IMG/VR virus record: IMGVR_UViG_2541047682_000004
Direction: 5' to 3' (one strand)
Length of the DNA stretch: 37,780 nucleotides
Origin: a virus
Taxonomy: Duplodnaviria; Heunggongvirae; Uroviricota; Caudoviricetes
The notes below the pieces were generated by a model. It did no database searches and had not been told where the DNA came from. It worked only from the letters and a program-made list of their open reading frames with translations. Shown in pieces: positions 8,744 to 21,928 of this stretch (positions are counted from its first letter, which is position 1; each line of letters begins with the position of its first letter). Both the position numbers and the translations under genes were made by a program.

Positions 8744-8874
8744 CGAGATTAAAGTGCATTAGTTCAGATGCAAATTGACATTTTGTGGCACAGGGTAGAG
8801 CTAGCGTGGTTGTCCGCTTTGTGCCAATAGCGGACATTGCTGGCTCATGGTATGTTAGTTTAAGGAGGCATGTT

Positions 8875-9897
8875 ATGCCCTGTATTTCGCTGTGGTATAA
8901 TAGTTGCGCAATTGATACAAGGGAGCGTTACATCGTGAAAATTGTTTTCGAGGTTAATGGAAAGAAAGTTCCACTAAAATCTTTAAAATACATAAGCAAA
9001 AAAGATCAACTCGAAGTAATGAAAAACTGGTTCTTTGAAAACTTTGAAGATCCGGCAAATGCTTGTCCGTATGAAAGTAGAGAAGGTGGCTATGCTTACA
9101 TATATGGCGGGCCGTATGATGCGAGCGAAGAACTACAATCCATCTTCGGTCAATATGTTAAATCTGAGTATATTGAGGAATTAGTAGATGAATTACAAAC
9201 ACAATGTTTTGACTGGTCTGGAAACTCAAATAATATAGATGATTGGTACGATGATGATATCTACGACGCTGTAACGTCTTCCGGTAATCCGTATTTAAAA
9301 TTCATTGATAATATCGATAAAATAAAAAAACTTGCAAAAGATAAAACTGAACAACAGCAAAAAAACCACTTGCTTAGTTTGCTCTACACGAATGTTATTA
9401 CAGCTTTGGAAACGCTTTATGTTGAGCTATTCATTAATTCTATAGAGAAAGATGATGTCTACATAGCCAATTGTATAGAAAAAGGTAAGACTGAATTTAA
9501 AGTAAGCAAAGATATTGCTGCGTTGCCTTTCAAGGGTGAACCCATCGAGAAAATTAGGGGAGAGCTAATCAGGTCAATCAAGGAACACTTGATCAGTGCA
9601 AGCTGGCATAGCACTAAAAAGGTAATCGACCGCTATGAAGCTACATTCGATATAAAAGTACAAAAAGACTGTCCGATAGAAGCTATTGAATTGGCAACCC
9701 TCAATCGAAATCACTTAGTGCATCGTGGTGGAAAGGATAAAGAAGGGAACCTCGTAGTGATTACAGACCAGGATCTTGAAACGCTGATTGAAAATGCATC
9801 GAACCTGGCAATTATGCTCTACAACAGTTTAAATGTAGCAACGAATAAAACCACCATTTTGCAACCAGATGACAAACCGTTCATTCATGAATTTTAA
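8875..9897 (+). CDS. hypothetical protein with C-terminal HEPN-like Rx4H motif (candidate RNase, accessory island gene A)
   Basis: ATG at 8875 with AGGAGG 6 nt upstream, in frame with ORF 8785..9897; AT-rich codon usage; C-terminal ..ATLNRNHLVHRGG.. (R-x4-H). Confidence 0.6.
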   Translation: MPCISLWYNSCAIDTRERYIVKIVFEVNGKKVPLKSLKYISKKDQLEVMKNWFFENFEDPANACPYESREGGYAYIYGGPYDASEELQSIFGQYVKSEYIEELVDELQTQCFDWSGNSNNIDDWYDDDIYDAVTSSGNPYLKFIDNIDKIKKLAKDKTEQQQKNHLLSLLYTNVITALETLYVELFINSIEKDDVYIANCIEKGKTEFKVSKDIAALPFKGEPIEKIRGELIRSIKEHLISASWHSTKKVIDRYEATFDIKVQKDCPIEAIELATLNRNHLVHRGGKDKEGNLVVITDQDLETLIENASNLAIMLYNSLNVATNKTTILQPDDKPFIHEF

Positions 9898-9912
9898 TAG
9901 CGCAGGTCATAC

Positions 9913-10914
9913 ATGGATATTCGCACACGAAAGACAAAATTTTTAGAGTCGTTAGATTCAACTGAAGTGATACGCAAAGCAGTAAGTCTCGCTATAGATT
10001 GCATTATTGATAATCATAATAGTAATGAAGATACCCCCTTAGTTATTACCAGCTATGATGATCTCTGTAGAATCCAGGTGCTAAATTATGTACAGGAGTT
10101 TTGCGAAGCTGCATTCCCTGATATGGATGAATATTACTTTAGTCCTAACATACTTCGCATCAACGGCAAGACTAGTGAAGAAGCTTGTATTAACTTAATT
10201 AAACTCTTAAGAAGTACAAAAGGCATGCTATTCTGGTCCGATGCCCCATCGTGGTTCGCTAGCCTCCCCGACGGATTATTCCATGTTGTTAACATTGATC
10301 AAAAAATCGTTACTCGCGGCCTTAATAAGAAAAACTCTAAGCCGACAATAATCAATAAAGATTACAGTGTAGATACACTACTATCAGAGCTATTTTTGAA
10401 TGGCGCACACATGGAGCAACCCAACGTACACAACGTTTCTGAGGGAAACATGAAGTTCTATGATGAATGCCATGCTGGATTAATCAGACCAATACCCGCT
10501 CCAATAGGCGCGTCATACGATGAAGAGATCACAATTAATTCTCCAGATTGGCAAAAGCTCGCGTGTGTAGCTTTACGCCGCTATCAGTCGAAGGAATGTC
10601 ATGACGGAATGCAATGGGATACAACCGATCATGGTTGGACTGATGTAATCGCGTATCCATTCGTCGAAGAAATACAATCAATGGATAATAGTGGTTATCG
10701 ACAATGTTTAGTTGGGCTGGTCACAATAAACAATTCAAATGCAAATTCTCCGTACCTATCTACCGTTTGGATACATCCATTTTATCGCAGGAGAGGGTTA
10801 TTAAGTAAGTTATGGCCAAAATTACAAGAGTTATATGGAAGTAACTTCGAAATTGAGCGACCTAATGAAAATATGAAAGCATTTCTGAAAAGTGCGAAAC
10901 ACGCAGATTACTAA
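9913..10914 (+). CDS. hypothetical protein with C-terminal GNAT-like acetyltransferase fold (accessory island gene B)
   Basis: 333 aa; starts 15 nt after gene A stop; C-terminal LVGLVTIN...STVWIHPFYRRRGLLSKLW resembles GNAT beta4/motif A; AT-rich. Confidence 0.55.
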   Translation: MDIRTRKTKFLESLDSTEVIRKAVSLAIDCIIDNHNSNEDTPLVITSYDDLCRIQVLNYVQEFCEAAFPDMDEYYFSPNILRINGKTSEEACINLIKLLRSTKGMLFWSDAPSWFASLPDGLFHVVNIDQKIVTRGLNKKNSKPTIINKDYSVDTLLSELFLNGAHMEQPNVHNVSEGNMKFYDECHAGLIRPIPAPIGASYDEEITINSPDWQKLACVALRRYQSKECHDGMQWDTTDHGWTDVIAYPFVEEIQSMDNSGYRQCLVGLVTINNSNANSPYLSTVWIHPFYRRRGLLSKLWPKLQELYGSNFEIERPNENMKAFLKSAKHADY

Positions 10915-11230
10915 TTTATGAATCAGTCTGTGGAGTTAGGGTTGGTGTCAACAAGTAGGGTAAGAGCCTCAACGTGATGCTATGCCGACCTGCTCCCTGA
11001 GAATTCACACAGAAGGCTGCTAGCAATGTCTGCAGATCGCTCAAAGCGGACTAGAAGGTTAGCTTGCGTCGGACTTGGCGTATTTAAAGAAGTGCTGGTG
11101 GTGACTGGTTGTTGTGTTCCATTTCTACAGAACAAAATCACAGAAACTATACCCAATAGTTATATTGAATCAATGATGAGACAGCCTCATATTTATCAGA
11201 ACTGGTGTACGTCCAATACAGGAGGTTGTC

Positions 11231-11339: not shown

Positions 11340-11531
11340 CGGGAGTTAAGTAGAATTGCTGCGGGTGCTTGAGGCTATCTGCCTCAGGCATGAACACCAA
11401 AGGCAGATAGAGAAAAGCCCCAGTTAATATTACGCGTCCTGCAAGACGCTTAACATTAATCTGAGGCTCAATCTATGAACGGCAAATCTAGGTTAGCCTC
11501 TTACGTGCCGAAAGGCAAGGAGAAGCAGGCT
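11340..11531. promoter_or_regulatory. hok mRNA leader with stem-loops; expected location of the antisense sok-like RNA
   Basis: hairpin CTGAGGCTATCTGCCTCAG at about 11369-11390 and repeated TGAGGC before the hok start; by analogy with the hok/sok organisation. Confidence 0.4.
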
Positions 11532-11687
11532 ATGAAGCAGCAAAAGGCGATGTTAATCGCCCTGATCGTCATCTGTTTAACCGTCATAGTGACGGCACTG
11601 GTAACGAGGAAAGACCTCTGCGAGGTACGAATCCGAACCGGCCAGACGGAGGTCGCTGTCTTCACAGTTTACGAACCTGAGGAGTAA
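11532..11687 (+). CDS. hokD: Hok/Gef-family type I toxin (HokD/RelF-like)
   Basis: 51-aa product MKQQKAMLIALIVICLTVIVTALVTRKDLCEVRIRTGQTEVAVFTVYEPEE, near-identical to my recollection of E. coli HokD; in-frame upstream extension from 11475. Confidence 0.85.
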   Translation: MKQQKAMLIALIVICLTVIVTALVTRKDLCEVRIRTGQTEVAVFTVYEPEE

Positions 11688-11725
11688 GAGACCCGGCGAG
11701 GGAGAAATCCCTCGCCACCTCTGAT

Positions 11726-12133
11726 GTGTCAGGCATCCTCAACGCACCCGCACGTAACCCGCTTCGGCGGGTTTTGTTTTTTCCTGGCATTCTGGTTTAC
11801 AATTCGCACGCCAGCCTGAACAACTGGCACCTGCTGCGCCAGCAGAGACAACCGATGGCGCACGATACCAAATTACACAATTCTGATGATTCTGCCGTCT
11901 TTGCCAGCAGGCACGGGCGGCGTTCCCGCACTTTCAAATCTGACTGGTTCCAGCATCCCCCATGCACTGAAGAACAGGCCGAGTGGCTAATTCAGTGCTA
12001 CCGCAGACACGGATACGAGATTAAGAAAGCCCTCAGCCTCGATTATCGTCACTGGATAATCTCCGTCAGGCTTCCTTACTCCGAACGATCACCGCGTCCG
12101 TCCCGCACATTCCAGCAACGCATCTGGAGGTAA
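11726..12133 (+). CDS. hypothetical protein (start uncertain; alternative ATG at 11855)
   Basis: ORF only; no strong RBS at either start. Confidence 0.35.
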   Translation: MSGILNAPARNPLRRVLFFPGILVYNSHASLNNWHLLRQQRQPMAHDTKLHNSDDSAVFASRHGRRSRTFKSDWFQHPPCTEEQAEWLIQCYRRHGYEIKKALSLDYRHWIISVRLPYSERSPRPSRTFQQRIWR

Positions 12134-14958: not shown

Positions 14959-16008
14959 ATGCTTAATACTGTAAAAATATCCAGTTGTGAGTTAATCAAC
15001 GCCGACTGCCTGGAATTTATCCGGTCGTTACCCGAAAATTCTGTTGACCTGATAGTCACGGACCCGCCGTACTTTAAAGTGAAGCCTGAGGGCTGGGATA
15101 ACCAGTGGAAGGGCGACGATGATTACCTGAAGTGGCTGGACCAGTGTCTGGCGCAGTTCTGGCGGGTGCTGAAACCTGCCGGAAGTCTTTACCTGTTCTG
15201 TGGTCATCGCCTGGCATCTGATATCGAAATCATGATGCGTGAACGCTTCAGTGTGCTGAACCATATTATCTGGGCGAAGCCGTCCGGACGCTGGAACGGA
15301 TGCAACAAGGAAAGCCTGCGGGCGTATTTCCCCGCCACAGAGCGCATTCTGTTCGCGGAACATTATCAGGGGCCGTATCGTCCGAAAGATGCCGGGTATG
15401 CGGCGAAGGGCAGTGCACTGAAACAGCATGTGATGGCCCCGCTGATTTCTTACTTTCGTGATGCGCGCGCGGCCCTGGGGATAACGGCAAAACAGATTGC
15501 AGATGCCACAGGAAAGAAAAACATGGTGTCGCACTGGTTCAGTGCCAGTCAGTGGCAGCTACCGAATGAAAGCGATTATCTGAAATTACAGGCGCTGTTT
15601 GCCCGGGTGGCAGAAGAGAAGCATCGGCGTGGTGAACTGGAAAAGCTCCACCACCAGCTGGTGGATACGTATACCTCACTGAACCGGCAGTATGCGGAGC
15701 TGCTGAGTGAATATAAACATCTGCGGCGGTATTTTGGCGTGACGGTGCAGGTGCCGTATACCGATGTGTGGACGCATAAACCGGTGCAGTTCTATCCCGG
15801 GAAACATCCGTGCGAAAAACCGGCAGAAATGCTGCAGCAGATAATCAGCGCAAGTAGCCGTCCTGGTGATCTGGTTGCGGATTTTTTCATGGGGTCGGGT
15901 TCAACGGTAAAAGCGGCGATGGCACTGGGGCGTCGTGCGATTGGTGTTGAGCTGGAGACCGGACGTTTTGAGCAGACAGTCAGGGAAGTTCAGGATTTAA
16001 TCGTTTGA
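14959..16008 (+). CDS. orphan DNA methyltransferase (amino-MTase, DPPY motif; N6-adenine or N4-cytosine)
   Basis: 349 aa; motif IV IVTDPPYF near N-terminus and motif I-like FMGSGST near C-terminus; no adjacent restriction endonuclease ORF. Confidence 0.85.
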   Translation: MLNTVKISSCELINADCLEFIRSLPENSVDLIVTDPPYFKVKPEGWDNQWKGDDDYLKWLDQCLAQFWRVLKPAGSLYLFCGHRLASDIEIMMRERFSVLNHIIWAKPSGRWNGCNKESLRAYFPATERILFAEHYQGPYRPKDAGYAAKGSALKQHVMAPLISYFRDARAALGITAKQIADATGKKNMVSHWFSASQWQLPNESDYLKLQALFARVAEEKHRRGELEKLHHQLVDTYTSLNRQYAELLSEYKHLRRYFGVTVQVPYTDVWTHKPVQFYPGKHPCEKPAEMLQQIISASSRPGDLVADFFMGSGSTVKAAMALGRRAIGVELETGRFEQTVREVQDLIV

Positions 16009-16057
16009 AACGGATGAGATTGCAGAATTAATTACGCACCATTATTATTCTGCTCCC

Positions 16058-16133
16058 GGCCCTTTAGCTCAGTGGTGAGAGCGAGCGACTCATAATCGCC
16101 AGGTCGCTGGTTCAAATCCAGCAAGGGCCACCA
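16058..16133 (+). tRNA. ileZ: tRNA-Ile2 (anticodon CAT, ileX/ileZ-like) or tRNA-Met
   Basis: 76-nt cloverleaf folded by hand: 7-bp acceptor GGCCCTT/AAGGGCC, anticodon loop CTCATAA, T-loop TTCAAAT, encoded CCA; resembles E. coli ileX. Confidence 0.85.
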
Positions 16134-16140
16134 TCACATA

Positions 16141-16217
16141 CCGCCATTAGCTCATCAGGAAAGAGCGCCAGCCTTCGAAGCTGGTTGCGCGGAGTTCGGG
16201 TCCCCGAAGGCGGTCCA
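16141..16217 (+). tRNA. tRNA-like gene, possibly tRNA-Arg (anticodon TCG by position); degenerate
   Basis: cloverleaf possible with anticodon stem CCAGC/GCTGG and loop CTTCGAA, but acceptor and T-stem each have a mismatch and the T-loop is non-canonical (TTCGGGT); may be a pseudogene. Confidence 0.4.
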
Positions 16218-16230
16218 TTATCTGTATCCT

Positions 16231-16307
16231 GCGTTGTTAGCTCAGCCGGACAGAGCAATTGCCTTCTAAGCAATCGGTCACTGGTTCGAATCCAGTACAA
16301 CGCGCCA
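16231..16307 (+). tRNA. argO: tRNA-Arg (anticodon TCT, argU/argO-like)
   Basis: 77 nt; perfect 7-bp acceptor GCGTTGT/ACAACGC, anticodon loop CTTCTAA, T-loop TTCGAAT, encoded CCA. Confidence 0.85.
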
Positions 16308-19984: not shown

Positions 19985-20291
19985 AAACCGGCCAAGGATA
20001 ATCCGCTGAAGATTCGCCGGTGGCTAAAGTGTGCCAAGAGTTCAATTTACGCAATTACTCCTGTCGATGCTATGTACCGTCTTTGTGAAGTCAATGGATA
20101 CCTGATTTATTTCTGTGCGCTGTATCGTCGCTGTACTCTTGCATTAATTATGACTGTAGCCTGACGGGGAACTCCTTCTGCACAAGTGTGGGGGAATAAT
20201 CAAAAACGATGCACACCGGGGTTACCGGGTACACATATTTCATCATGCCAGCGAGTCCGGTTCTGGCACGGAAGAAACCGGACGTTATGAT

Positions 20292-20702
20292 TTAGTGCGG
20301 AAATATTTGTGTAGTGTTCTGAATGTTCTCAGTAAAGAGTAATGAATTATCAAAGGTATAGTAATACCTTTTGTTTTCGTGGATATTTGTAATCCATCTG
20401 AAAACCCCTGCTGTAGCAAGATTTTTCCTGTATTCGTAAAATGATAACTCTCCTGATTTGAATCCTTTTAAGGTGGCTTCTATAAGGCATTTATTTTTTG
20501 AAAATCTTACATTTACAACCTTACCCTGTCCTTTTATTAAAACCGTATTATCGTTTTCAAGAACAAGATGAATATTCTCTGTGGCTAAATAGTAAATGTA
20601 ATGTGAGACATTGTGACGTTTTAGTTCAGAATAAAACCAGTGATAGTTTAAATTATTTCGCACTTTATCGAATATTTGTTTAAAAATGGCAATCTGAGCC
20701 AT
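20292..20702 (-). CDS. hypothetical protein (136 aa from MAQIAIF; AT-rich; YbcV/DUF1398-like by position)
   Basis: ORF 20292..20717; preferred start at 20702 with GGAAGG RBS; low GC; at the bor-equivalent locus between Rz and cos. Confidence 0.5.
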
Positions 20703-20759
20703 TGTAGTACCTTCCATGTGATATGAGGGGGGGTAGTCTGCACGATTATCTAAATTGCT

Positions 20760-20993
20760 TCAATCTGGTCTGACCTGTTTTCTGAGCAATTCAGTAATGT
20801 CACTCTTTTCTTTGTTTGCTTCAGGCGAAACTCTTTTTTCTGAGCACAGTCTCCGGCGGCAGGCTTCAATGACCCAGGCTGAGAAATTCCCGGACCCTTT
20901 TTGAACAAGAGCGATGTTAATTTGTTCAATCATTTGGTTAGGAAAGCGGATGTTGCGGGTTGTTGTTCTGCGGGTTCTGTTCTTCGTTGACAT
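20760..20993 (-). CDS. ribbon-helix-helix (Arc/CopG-like) DNA-binding protein
   Basis: 77 aa; RNIRFPNQMIEQINIALVQKGSGNFSAWVIEACRRRL fits the RHH beta-strand and two-helix pattern; directly upstream of the 136-aa gene on the same strand. Confidence 0.5.
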   Translation of the reverse strand: MSTKNRTRRTTTRNIRFPNQMIEQINIALVQKGSGNFSAWVIEACRRRLCSEKRVSPEANKEKSDITELLRKQVRPD

Positions 20994-21192
20994 GAGGTTG
21001 CCCTGTATTCAGTGTCGCTGATTTGTATTGTCTGAAGTTGTTTTTACGTTAGGTTGATGCAGATCAATTAATACGATACCTGCGTCATAATTGATTATTT
21101 GACGTGGTTTGATGGCCTCCACGCACGTTGTGATATGTAGATGATAATCATTATCGCTTTACGGGTCCTTTCCGGTGATCCGACAGGTTACG

Positions 21193-21204
21193 GGGCGGCG
21201 ACCT
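21193..21204. other. cosN cohesive-end site (GGGCGGCGACCT) with flanking lambda-like cosQ/cosB
   Basis: ACGGGGCGGCGACCTCGCGGTTTTTCACTATTTATGAAAATTTT closely matches the lambda left-end sequence; about 180 bp upstream of the Nu1 start. Confidence 0.8.
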
Positions 21205-21379
21205 CGCGGTTTTTCACTATTTATGAAAATTTTTCAGGGAAAATCGTGTCGGTACTTCTCGAATATAACTTTTTGTTTTTTTTAATATTGCATTCATAAA
21301 TGTCCGACATGAAAGTGTCCGAAAATGCCTTTTTCTGGCGTTTTCATGTCGGGCCTTGTATTTGATAATGGGTTGTTCT

Positions 21380-21928
21380 ATGAAGGTTAATAAAAAGAGG
21401 CTTGCCGAAATTTTTAACGTGGACCCGCGGACGATTGAACGCTGGCAGTCTCAGGGGCTCCCTTGCGTCTCCAAAGGCAGTAAGGGCATTGAATCTGTAT
21501 TTGATACTGCCATGGCAATTCAGTGGTATGCGCAGAGGGAAACTGATATCGAAAACGAAAAGCTCCGCAAAGAACTGGCCGATTTGCGTGCGGCAGCGGA
21601 GTCAGATTTACAACCCGGCACCATTGACTATGAACGCTACCGGCTCACAAAAGCGCAGGCAGATGCGCAGGAACTGAAAAATGCCCGTGAAGACGGAGTG
21701 GTGCTGGAAACTGAACTGTTTACCTTCATTCTGCAACGTGTGGCACAGGAGATTTCGGGGATACTTGTGCGTGTGCCGTTGACATTACAGCGTAAATATC
21801 CGGACATTTCACCATCACACCTTGATGTGGTGAAAACTGAAATCGCGAAAGCCTCCAATGTTGCAGCTAAGGCCGGTGAAAACGTGGGCGGGTGGATCGA
21901 TGATTTCAGACGCACAGAAGGCAGCTAA
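21380..21928 (+). CDS. nu1: terminase small subunit (lambda Nu1)
   Basis: [23 protein letters not shown]... strongly similar to lambda Nu1. Confidence 0.9.

Follow-up and report, generated by a model that had tools for sequence, protein, structure and literature searches.

The window analyzed here is the whole 37,780-nt Caudoviricetes sequence IMGVR_UViG_2541047682_000004 (IMG/VR virus record), which carries a lambdoid (Rac/Qin-like) prophage that adjoins ompW in Escherichia coli of the B2/extraintestinal pathogenic (ExPEC) type (S88, IHE3034, APEC O1, UTI89, and ATCC 11775). Between the DUF977 gene and hokD of this prophage, with the replication genes on one side and the nin/Q region on the other, lies a cassette (8812-11051) of two genes on the plus strand: gene A (8935..9897), which encodes a 320-aa HEPN protein (WP_014639476.1), and gene B (9913..10914), which encodes a 333-aa GNAT-fold protein (WP_000354966.1). 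This pair is the published anti-phage defense system DS-33. An initial annotation, made from the sequence alone, had pointed to two co-directional genes separated by 15 nt in an AT-rich, horizontally acquired block at a defense hotspot, and all of this was borne out. The stop codon of A occupies 9895-9897, and B starts with the ATG at 9913; the GC content is 0.389 across 8812-11051 versus 0.512 for the whole window, in which no 2.2-kb stretch is lower. The 2.2-kb region is present at ~100% identity in 205 of 5426 complete E. coli genomes, with both genes labeled "hypothetical protein."

The limits of the island, initially placed at 8744 and 10920, were located at 8812 and 11051 from homology with copies in unrelated contexts. 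Both ends consist of 33-bp inverted repeats, each of which is itself a hairpin, GTCCGCT-N10-AGCGGAC. The left terminal repeat (8812..8844, plus strand) comprises this hairpin plus ATTGCTGGC and is an inverted match of the right end; homology with the copies found elsewhere begins exactly here. The right terminal repeat (11019..11051, minus strand; reverse complement GTCCGCTTTGAGCGATCTGCAGACATTGCTAGC) was identified as a pattern match of which none is expected by chance, and cassette homology elsewhere stops at it. Backbone homology with the phages Tritos and Evi picks up again at 11025 and 11037. The same slot holds unrelated cargo in related phages, and the cassette was also found in non-phage chromosomal contexts; the unrelated contexts of its copies include chromosomal sites, umuDC-adjoining islands with a recombinase, and a site that immediately follows a Gabija operon.

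Gene A had initially been assigned an ATG start at 8875 (340 aa), preceded by AGGAGG as the ribosome-binding site. This ATG is not present in the cassette copies L122, L125, and L126, which have CATAAC or CATACC instead; the GTG at 8935 is conserved and is the start used by the homologs, by PGAP, and in the published protein. Gene A therefore begins at GTG 8935 and encodes 320 aa, not 340, so that the AGGAGG at 8863-8868 serves no conserved start codon. The ribosome-binding site at 8921..8927 (AGGGAG, plus strand) takes the form AAGGGAG or AAGGAGG, 7-8 nt 5' of the conserved GTG. The elements originally read as the island's own promoter, TTGACA (8775-8780) and the palindrome TGTGGCACA (8784-8792), do exist, but outside the island; they are unchanged in Tritos and Evi despite the different cargo of these phages and thus belong to the phage backbone. 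No usable -10 element follows this TTGACA, where the promoter scan made no call; across the region, the promoter and terminator scan gave nothing above background. We infer that the best candidate for an island promoter is the extended -10 TGgTATAAT at 8893..8901 (plus strand). The motif TGgTAYAAT occurs in all cassette copies and is kept even in L127, which is devoid of the left hairpin, and in the A-deleted copies L101 and L123.

In a search of full texts and supplements, the accession of protein A, WP_014639476.1, turned up as an exact match in the DefensePredictor paper (Science 2026; PMC13092281), where Table S6 lists it together with WP_000354965.1 under the working id "GNAT" (defensive = TRUE) as DS-33. 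Protein A is identical to DS-33A (320/320), and B matches DS-33B in 332 of 333 positions, the one difference being P289 in the window and L289 in the published protein; gene order and the 15-nt spacer are alike. The published cloning primers map to 8744-11014 of the window, and the published GNAT deletion takes out exactly 9913-10914. Thus, the island, first presented as undescribed, is already in the literature, and its proposed defense function is upheld by published plaquing assays on essentially this sequence, in which the R258A mutant of A loses defense (PMC13092281).

Cloned in E. coli MG1655, DS-33 lowered the plaquing of T7, T3, Bas67, and Bas26 by 2-6 logs (PMC13092281). Expressed as -log10 efficiency of plating (EOP), protection in the screen was 3.0 for T7, 3.5 for T3, 2.3 for Bas67, and 4.7 for Bas26 (PMC13092281). 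The wild-type system (replicates 1/2) gave 3.78/2.60 for T7, 3.30/2.40 for T3, 4.0/1.98 for Bas67, 5.0/5.90 for Bas26, and 0.77/0.08 for T5, and the GNAT deletion gave 4.78/4.30, 3.30/3.30, 4.0/3.30, 5.0/4.90, and 1.73/0.55, respectively; the values did not exceed 0.54 for any of the five phages with the HEPN deletion or 0.78 with R258A (PMC13092281). These experiments have shown that A is necessary, that it is sufficient when B is deleted, and that the HEPN arginine R258 is required. DS-33 is absent from the discussion in the main text of that paper, where it is counted among the HEPN-domain systems, its phenotype and mutants being given in tables only (PMC13092281).

Protein A combines a probable HEPN/RES-NTD1 domain (aa ~1-115) with a HEPN fold (aa ~119-308), probably of the RiboL-PSP family, that contains an invariant R-x4-H motif, in agreement with the initial assignment to HEPN. 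The segment RNHLVHRGG is present, and R258, H263, and R264 (320-aa numbering; codons R258-N-H-L-V-H263-R264 at 9706..9726, plus strand) are invariant in 67 homologs. Tests for the HEPN superfamily found the all-alpha HEPN fold and conservation of the R-x4-6-H motif. PF18870 (HEPN/RES-NTD1) is matched by 63 of the 67 homologs at E <= 0.01 and PF18735 (RiboL-PSP-HEPN) by 35 of them (best E = 7e-11), and many homologs carry precomputed PF18735 assignments. The HHpred analysis in the DefensePredictor paper linked A to the PF18735 protein PD-T4-2_B with a probability of 96.1 and 55% of A covered (PMC13092281). The best structural matches of A include the HepT toxins 8xdj, 5yep, and 7ae2; a profile search of A against PDB sequences gave noise only. 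For both A and B, an NCBIfam search returned nothing meaningful, and PHROGs contained only families of unknown function made from the A and B proteins themselves.

Protein B is a GNAT-fold protein with an N-terminal domain private to its family, as far as the GNAT part is concerned in line with the initial annotation. The alpha/beta N-domain spans aa 1-~172 and the GNAT-fold C-domain aa ~175-333; the C-terminal STVWIHPFYRRRGLL segment falls inside the GNAT fold. The AlphaFold2 (AF2) model of B is confident and compact (predicted template modeling score, pTM, 0.83) and stops after alpha4, without the C-terminal beta6/beta7. PF00583 scores 19.9 bits with the B protein of the window (cut-off, 20.7) and is matched by 17 of 45 B homologs. 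Across these homologs, down to 38% identity, there are 17 invariant and ~50 nearly invariant columns. The R-R-R-G stretch pointed out earlier stands in the position of motif A, which in B reads R292-R-R-G295-L-L: R292 is invariant (45/45), 37 of the 45 homologs have G295, and neither G nor A ever occupies the last position. The position of the usual general-acid Tyr is occupied by Leu, and the motif-A glycine is replaced in some members. The nearest structural neighbors of the GNAT domain are protein lysine acetyltransferases (alpha-TAT, ESCO1, HAT1, and MYST). A Foldseek search of B against the PDB gave matches (HAT1, ESCO1, and MYST) only at low template modeling (TM) scores, too weak to assign the N-domain, and profile searches of B and of its N-domain against PDB sequences gave noise only. 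A profile of the 170-aa N-domain run against 1.84 billion representative sequences retrieved only 21 proteins, each of which has the same architecture or is a fragment of it; with no fusion to other domains, the N-domain offers no functional clue.

The single difference between B and the tested DS-33B falls at an invariant position. P289 is found in 44 of 44 homologs, and the 61-nt stretch of the window around codon 289 (10777-10779) is matched exactly by each of the 209 complete E. coli genomes with gene B. The window thus encodes the consensus, and L289 of the tested protein lies three residues ahead of the invariant R292, beside the presumed acyl-CoA loop; codon 289 and the R292-R-R-G295 loop, the equivalent of the GNAT motif A Q/R-x-x-G-x-G/A, occupy 10777..10797 (plus strand). 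Judging from this conservation, the tested L289 allele may be impaired. Because P289L alters an invariant residue, the published conclusion that the GNAT protein is dispensable needs re-testing.

Comparative genomics, proposed at the outset as a check on conserved pairing, showed that A is mostly solo and that the pair is confined to one cassette. Of the 80 species-representative genomes that contain an A homolog, only two have B adjoining it, Serratia grimesii and a contig resembling E. coli, both with ~98-100% identical copies. In Aeromonas taiwanensis and Yersinia alsatica, the homologs of A (75-76% identity) form monocistronic units, and their neighbors are on the opposite strand. B homologs with at least 78% identity are usually located 3' of A. 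The 15-nt spacer (9898..9912, plus strand), which contains a weak ribosome-binding site (GCAGG), is kept in all intact A-B copies, at identities as low as 84% for A and 78% for B, with the exception of L119, where it is one base shorter; this count leaves out three frameshifted or fragmentary contigs. At 56% identity or below, every B homolog whose upstream sequence is long enough for a judgment is solo, in contexts that include a HigBA-like pair (L138), a gene for a 754-aa ATPase-like protein (L141), and methylase genes together with a recombinase (L123).

Three copies of B at 86% identity have no A: L101 (5817-7075), L102 (5876-7076), and L123 (1422-2682). They are deletion derivatives in which the cassette leader (8812 to ~8868 or 8911) is joined, through two different junctions, to the last 60-80 nt of A (~9834-9856 onward), leaving an intact B ~80 nt 3' of the leader. 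TGgTACAAT is conserved in L101 and L123, and the A-deleted cassette of L102 follows a P4-type primase-like gene. The B ORF (open reading frame) is intact in all 12 cassette copies tested. Compared with the window, the ratio of nonsynonymous to synonymous substitution rates (dN/dS) lies between 0.12 and 0.21 for A and between 0.20 and 0.42 for B, with values of 0.25-0.40 for B in the A-deleted copies; by this measure, B is under purifying selection. Given that A is solo in most genomes and B is solo in relatives and in A-deleted cassettes, each gene is able to stand alone, and the A-B pairing is a property of one mobile cassette lineage. The earlier view of HEPN and GNAT as a coupled, toxin-antitoxin-like pair lacks support, as the GNAT deletion leaves defense intact or slightly stronger and A and B each occur solo; on present evidence, the pairing is not functionally obligatory.

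We consider it highly probable that the region is the prophage-borne anti-phage defense cassette DS-33, in which A is the HEPN effector and B is accessory. Several observations weigh against this interpretation. The A protein of the window scores 22.2 bits (E = 1.9e-4) with PF18870, under the 27.4-bit Pfam cut-off, and has no match to PF18735 at E <= 1, the matches to that family being confined to homologs; PADLOC 2.0.0, the run of which on the locus had been suggested initially, produced no credible match for A or B. For DS-33, neither cleavage of RNA nor a target, a trigger, or a phenotype of abortive infection has been reported. Furthermore, a contribution of B may have been masked by P289L in the tested allele.

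Under this interpretation, A would be an auto-inhibited sensor-effector that remains inactive until infection. Either the N-terminal NTD1 domain, which by its Pfam definition is common to RES NADase toxins, or a rearrangement of the HEPN dimer could sense a phage cue, upon which the HEPN site would cut RNA (tRNA, rRNA, or mRNA); translation would stop and the infection would abort, in analogy to other single-protein HEPN defenses. B would be accessory, its likeliest roles being an acyl-CoA-dependent modifier with a target of its own or a mild brake on A. The genetics of the GNAT deletion speaks against B being an essential partner or a classical antitoxin, and its conservation speaks against it being junk. 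Any gain in protection against T7-like phages in the GNAT deletion could reflect either a mild brake or a polar effect.

Among the other explanations of the pair, the one that fares best, and that we regard as a serious contender although somewhat short of even chances, is that B is an independent single-gene module traveling with A, either a second defense with another phage range or a lysogenic conversion gene that, for example, acetylates a phage or host protein. It would account for the solo B homologs in varied island-like contexts, for the two independent A deletions that place the cassette leader immediately before an intact B, for the dN/dS of solo B copies, and for the similarity of the GNAT domain to protein lysine acetyltransferases. 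However, none of the five phages assayed was held back by B alone (the HEPN deletion), and the complete system extended protection to no other member of the phage panel (PMC13092281). The DefensePredictor log-odds of B is only 1.08 (PMC13092281), and PADLOC finds nothing. The negative result for B alone is weakened by the fact that the tested B carried P289L.

We find it rather improbable that A and B form a toxin-antitoxin-like pair in which the GNAT protein restrains the HEPN protein, for instance, by acetylation, as MNT AMPylates HEPN toxins, until infection lifts the brake. The operon layout and the near-constant spacer of intact copies fit such a pair, HEPN toxins controlled by covalent modification exist (HepT-MntA; PDB matches 8xdj and 7ae2), and defense in the GNAT deletion was equal or stronger (replicates 1/2: T7, +1.0/+1.7 logs; T5, +1.0/+0.5; Bas67, 0/+1.3; PMC13092281). 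That gain could, however, be a polar or expression effect, and A is tolerated without B, as a strain with the GNAT deletion could be constructed and assayed with expression from the native promoter. The solo occurrence of A in 76 of 78 other species genomes, including copies at 75-76% identity, and the natural A-deleted cassettes with intact B also argue against obligatory restraint, and the tested B allele may already have been impaired. Only slightly better, and still unlikely in our estimate, is the compound proposition that the GNAT protein is a real partner, an acetylation-based brake or a second layer on the HEPN effector, hidden by P289L, and that, separately, the terminal hairpins define a widespread cassette-exchange system.

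That B is a decaying passenger without function is very doubtful: B is not needed for the measured defense, its motif A is degenerate (R-x-x-G-x-L, with some members lacking the glycine), and Leu replaces the general-acid Tyr, but the 12 of 12 intact copies, the dN/dS of 0.20-0.42, the invariant and near-invariant columns, and the confident AF2 model all speak against decay. A role of A and B in phage replication, recombination, or morphogenesis, for which the neighboring replication genes and nin/Q region could be cited, is ruled out by the unrelated cargo in the same slot of related phages, the non-phage chromosomal contexts of the cassette, the HEPN and GNAT folds, and the defense shown experimentally (PMC13092281), and we give it practically no credence.

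Comparison with known systems places DS-33 itself first: the window encodes the same system, with the consensus P289 in B where the tested clone has L289, and the DefensePredictor paper provides phenotype and mutant tables, without mechanism, cassette limits, or comparative genomics (PMC13092281). PD-T4-2 (Vassallo 2022), a two-gene E. coli defense that consists of a DUF262 protein and a PF18735 HEPN protein, has its HEPN subunit in the same Pfam HEPN family as A. It differs in the partner, a DUF262 NTPase versus GNAT here, and in that A has the extra HEPN/RES-NTD1 domain; the PADLOC PD-T4-2 models showed no match to A or B at E <= 1. Single-protein HEPN defenses (AbiD/AbiF, AbiJ, ApeA, DARNA, and DS-11) combine, in one gene, a sensor or regulatory domain with an Rx4-6H HEPN RNase, and mutation of the catalytic Arg or His loses defense; RiboL-PSP-HEPN has been described as a distant relative of AbiD/AbiF. 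Unlike in these systems, the regulatory domain of A is the N-terminal HEPN/RES-NTD1, and a putatively co-transcribed GNAT gene is present.

The HEPN-MNT (HepT-MntA) type II/VII toxin-antitoxin systems share with A the HEPN fold with Rx4H, and HepT is among the best structural matches of A. In contrast to HepT (~130 aa), A has 320 aa and an extra domain and is tolerated without its neighbor; no adjacent nucleotidyltransferase was present, and no nucleotidyltransferase domain was found in A or B. B resembles the GNAT toxins of GNAT-RHH (ribbon-helix-helix) systems (TacT, AtaT, and KacT) in having a GNAT fold within a mobile conflict locus. It differs from them in its size (333 aa), its 170-aa private N-domain, and its structural neighbors, which are protein lysine acetyltransferases; there is no RHH ORF within 8812-11051, and no sequence match of B to the TacT, AtaT, or KacT families was found. 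B alone, cloned with the native promoter as the HEPN-deletion construct and assayed, shows no sign of toxicity in the published tables (PMC13092281).

The closest parallel to the cassette structure is provided by the lysogenic conversion cassettes in the Z/fun region of phage P2 (GenBank AJ512685, P2-EC67 Z region). In these, too, AT-rich foreign ORFs are enclosed by inverted copies of the 24-bp hairpin core seen in the window, and a promoter is located immediately inside the left copy. In the window, 8812-8844 and 11019-11051 are inverted copies, and the hairpin matches within the "left inverted repeat" of AJ512685, a record that labels its hairpin-bearing sequences "left/right inverted repeat." By this annotation, the inverted-repeat feature dates to Nilsson et al. 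2004, an attribution that rests on the record and the sequence match. Unlike the P2 Z/fun cassettes, the cassette of the window occupies the DUF977-hokD interval of a lambdoid (Rac/Qin-like) prophage and is located, elsewhere, in non-phage contexts as well.

Interchangeable cargo cassettes that end in the 24-bp hairpin (consensus, GTCCGCTT(T/C)GTGCCA(R)AAGCGGAC) occur in chromosomal islands as well as in P2-like phages and lambdoid prophages. Of 5426 E. coli genomes, 3761 contain the motif, in one to seven places each. Copies were located in L126 (134, 3183, and 6650), L160 (9155), L153 (4069 and 5870), L154 (4069 and 5487), L184 (3501 and 5099), and L185 (3001). The hairpin flanks GajA/GajB of a Gabija system in L126 (PADLOC E = 8.6e-205 and 6.8e-123), DarT/DarG in the P2-like contig L160, an AbiC-like gene in L166, a gene for a PDC-S15/FRG protein in phage Tritos in the identical DUF977-hokD slot, a regulator and a small acetyltransferase in phage Evi, the Z/fun ORFs of P2, and relBE just upstream of hokD in the K-12 Qin prophage. 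DS-3 of the DefensePredictor paper is flanked by the hairpin as well, its cloning primer beginning within it. Directly beyond the right end of DS-33, L122 (3632-5626) and L126 (5286-6673) contain a further left-end-like hairpin and unannotated ORFs (146 and 334 aa in L122; 263 aa, minus strand, in L126), for which PADLOC and Pfam gave nothing; this arrangement suggests tandem cassettes with possible unknown cargo.

No target-site duplications were seen beside the inverted repeats in 12 contexts. To our knowledge, none of the integron attC sites, REP/ERIC elements, IS200/IS605 ends, or dif-like sites fits the hairpin by sequence, and we know of no recombinase for hairpin-bounded cassettes. An exchange system of this kind may shuttle DS-33, DS-3, Gabija, DarTG, PDC-S15, relBE, and P2 Z/fun among P2-like phages, lambdoid prophages, and chromosomal islands. 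Text searches of recent hotspot papers found no mention of the hairpin cassettes. The hairpin-bounded structure of the DS-33 cassette, shared with other defense cargo, is new in this analysis, as are the natural A-deleted cassettes with intact B and the presence of P289L in the tested allele.

Elsewhere in the window, an Rfam scan detected no RNA family within the cassette and only the sok antisense RNA (RF01794, 113 bits) at 11363-11537, directly downstream, where a hokD-type toxin ORF (11475-11687) is also located; an isrK-like match at 11696-11777 (27.8 bits) is weak, falling under the gathering score. According to the S88 annotation (L001), positions 1-1131 contain the prophage integrase adjoining ompW, and a DNA methyltransferase gene followed by tRNA-Ile and two tRNA-Arg genes lies at ~15000-16300, downstream of the Q antiterminator. 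The GC content is also low (0.39-0.42) at 20001-21500, where S88 has the DUF1398 and YlcI/YnfO genes on the minus strand, with the lysis module on one side and the terminase module on the other; this second stretch resembles a further insertion of the moron type. Because the S88 annotation shows frameshifts in the genes for lysozyme and the large terminase, the prophage may be defective.

The present analysis adds no new system to the literature, as DS-33 is already there. Its mechanistic interest lies in the trigger of the NTD1-HEPN protein, the RNA that it may cut, and the reason why a conserved GNAT-fold gene under purifying selection rides along. P289L matters in practice, in that the published dispensability of the GNAT protein rests on a probably atypical allele. 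The hairpin ends, in turn, provide a simple sequence handle for finding more defense cargo in enterobacterial prophages and islands.

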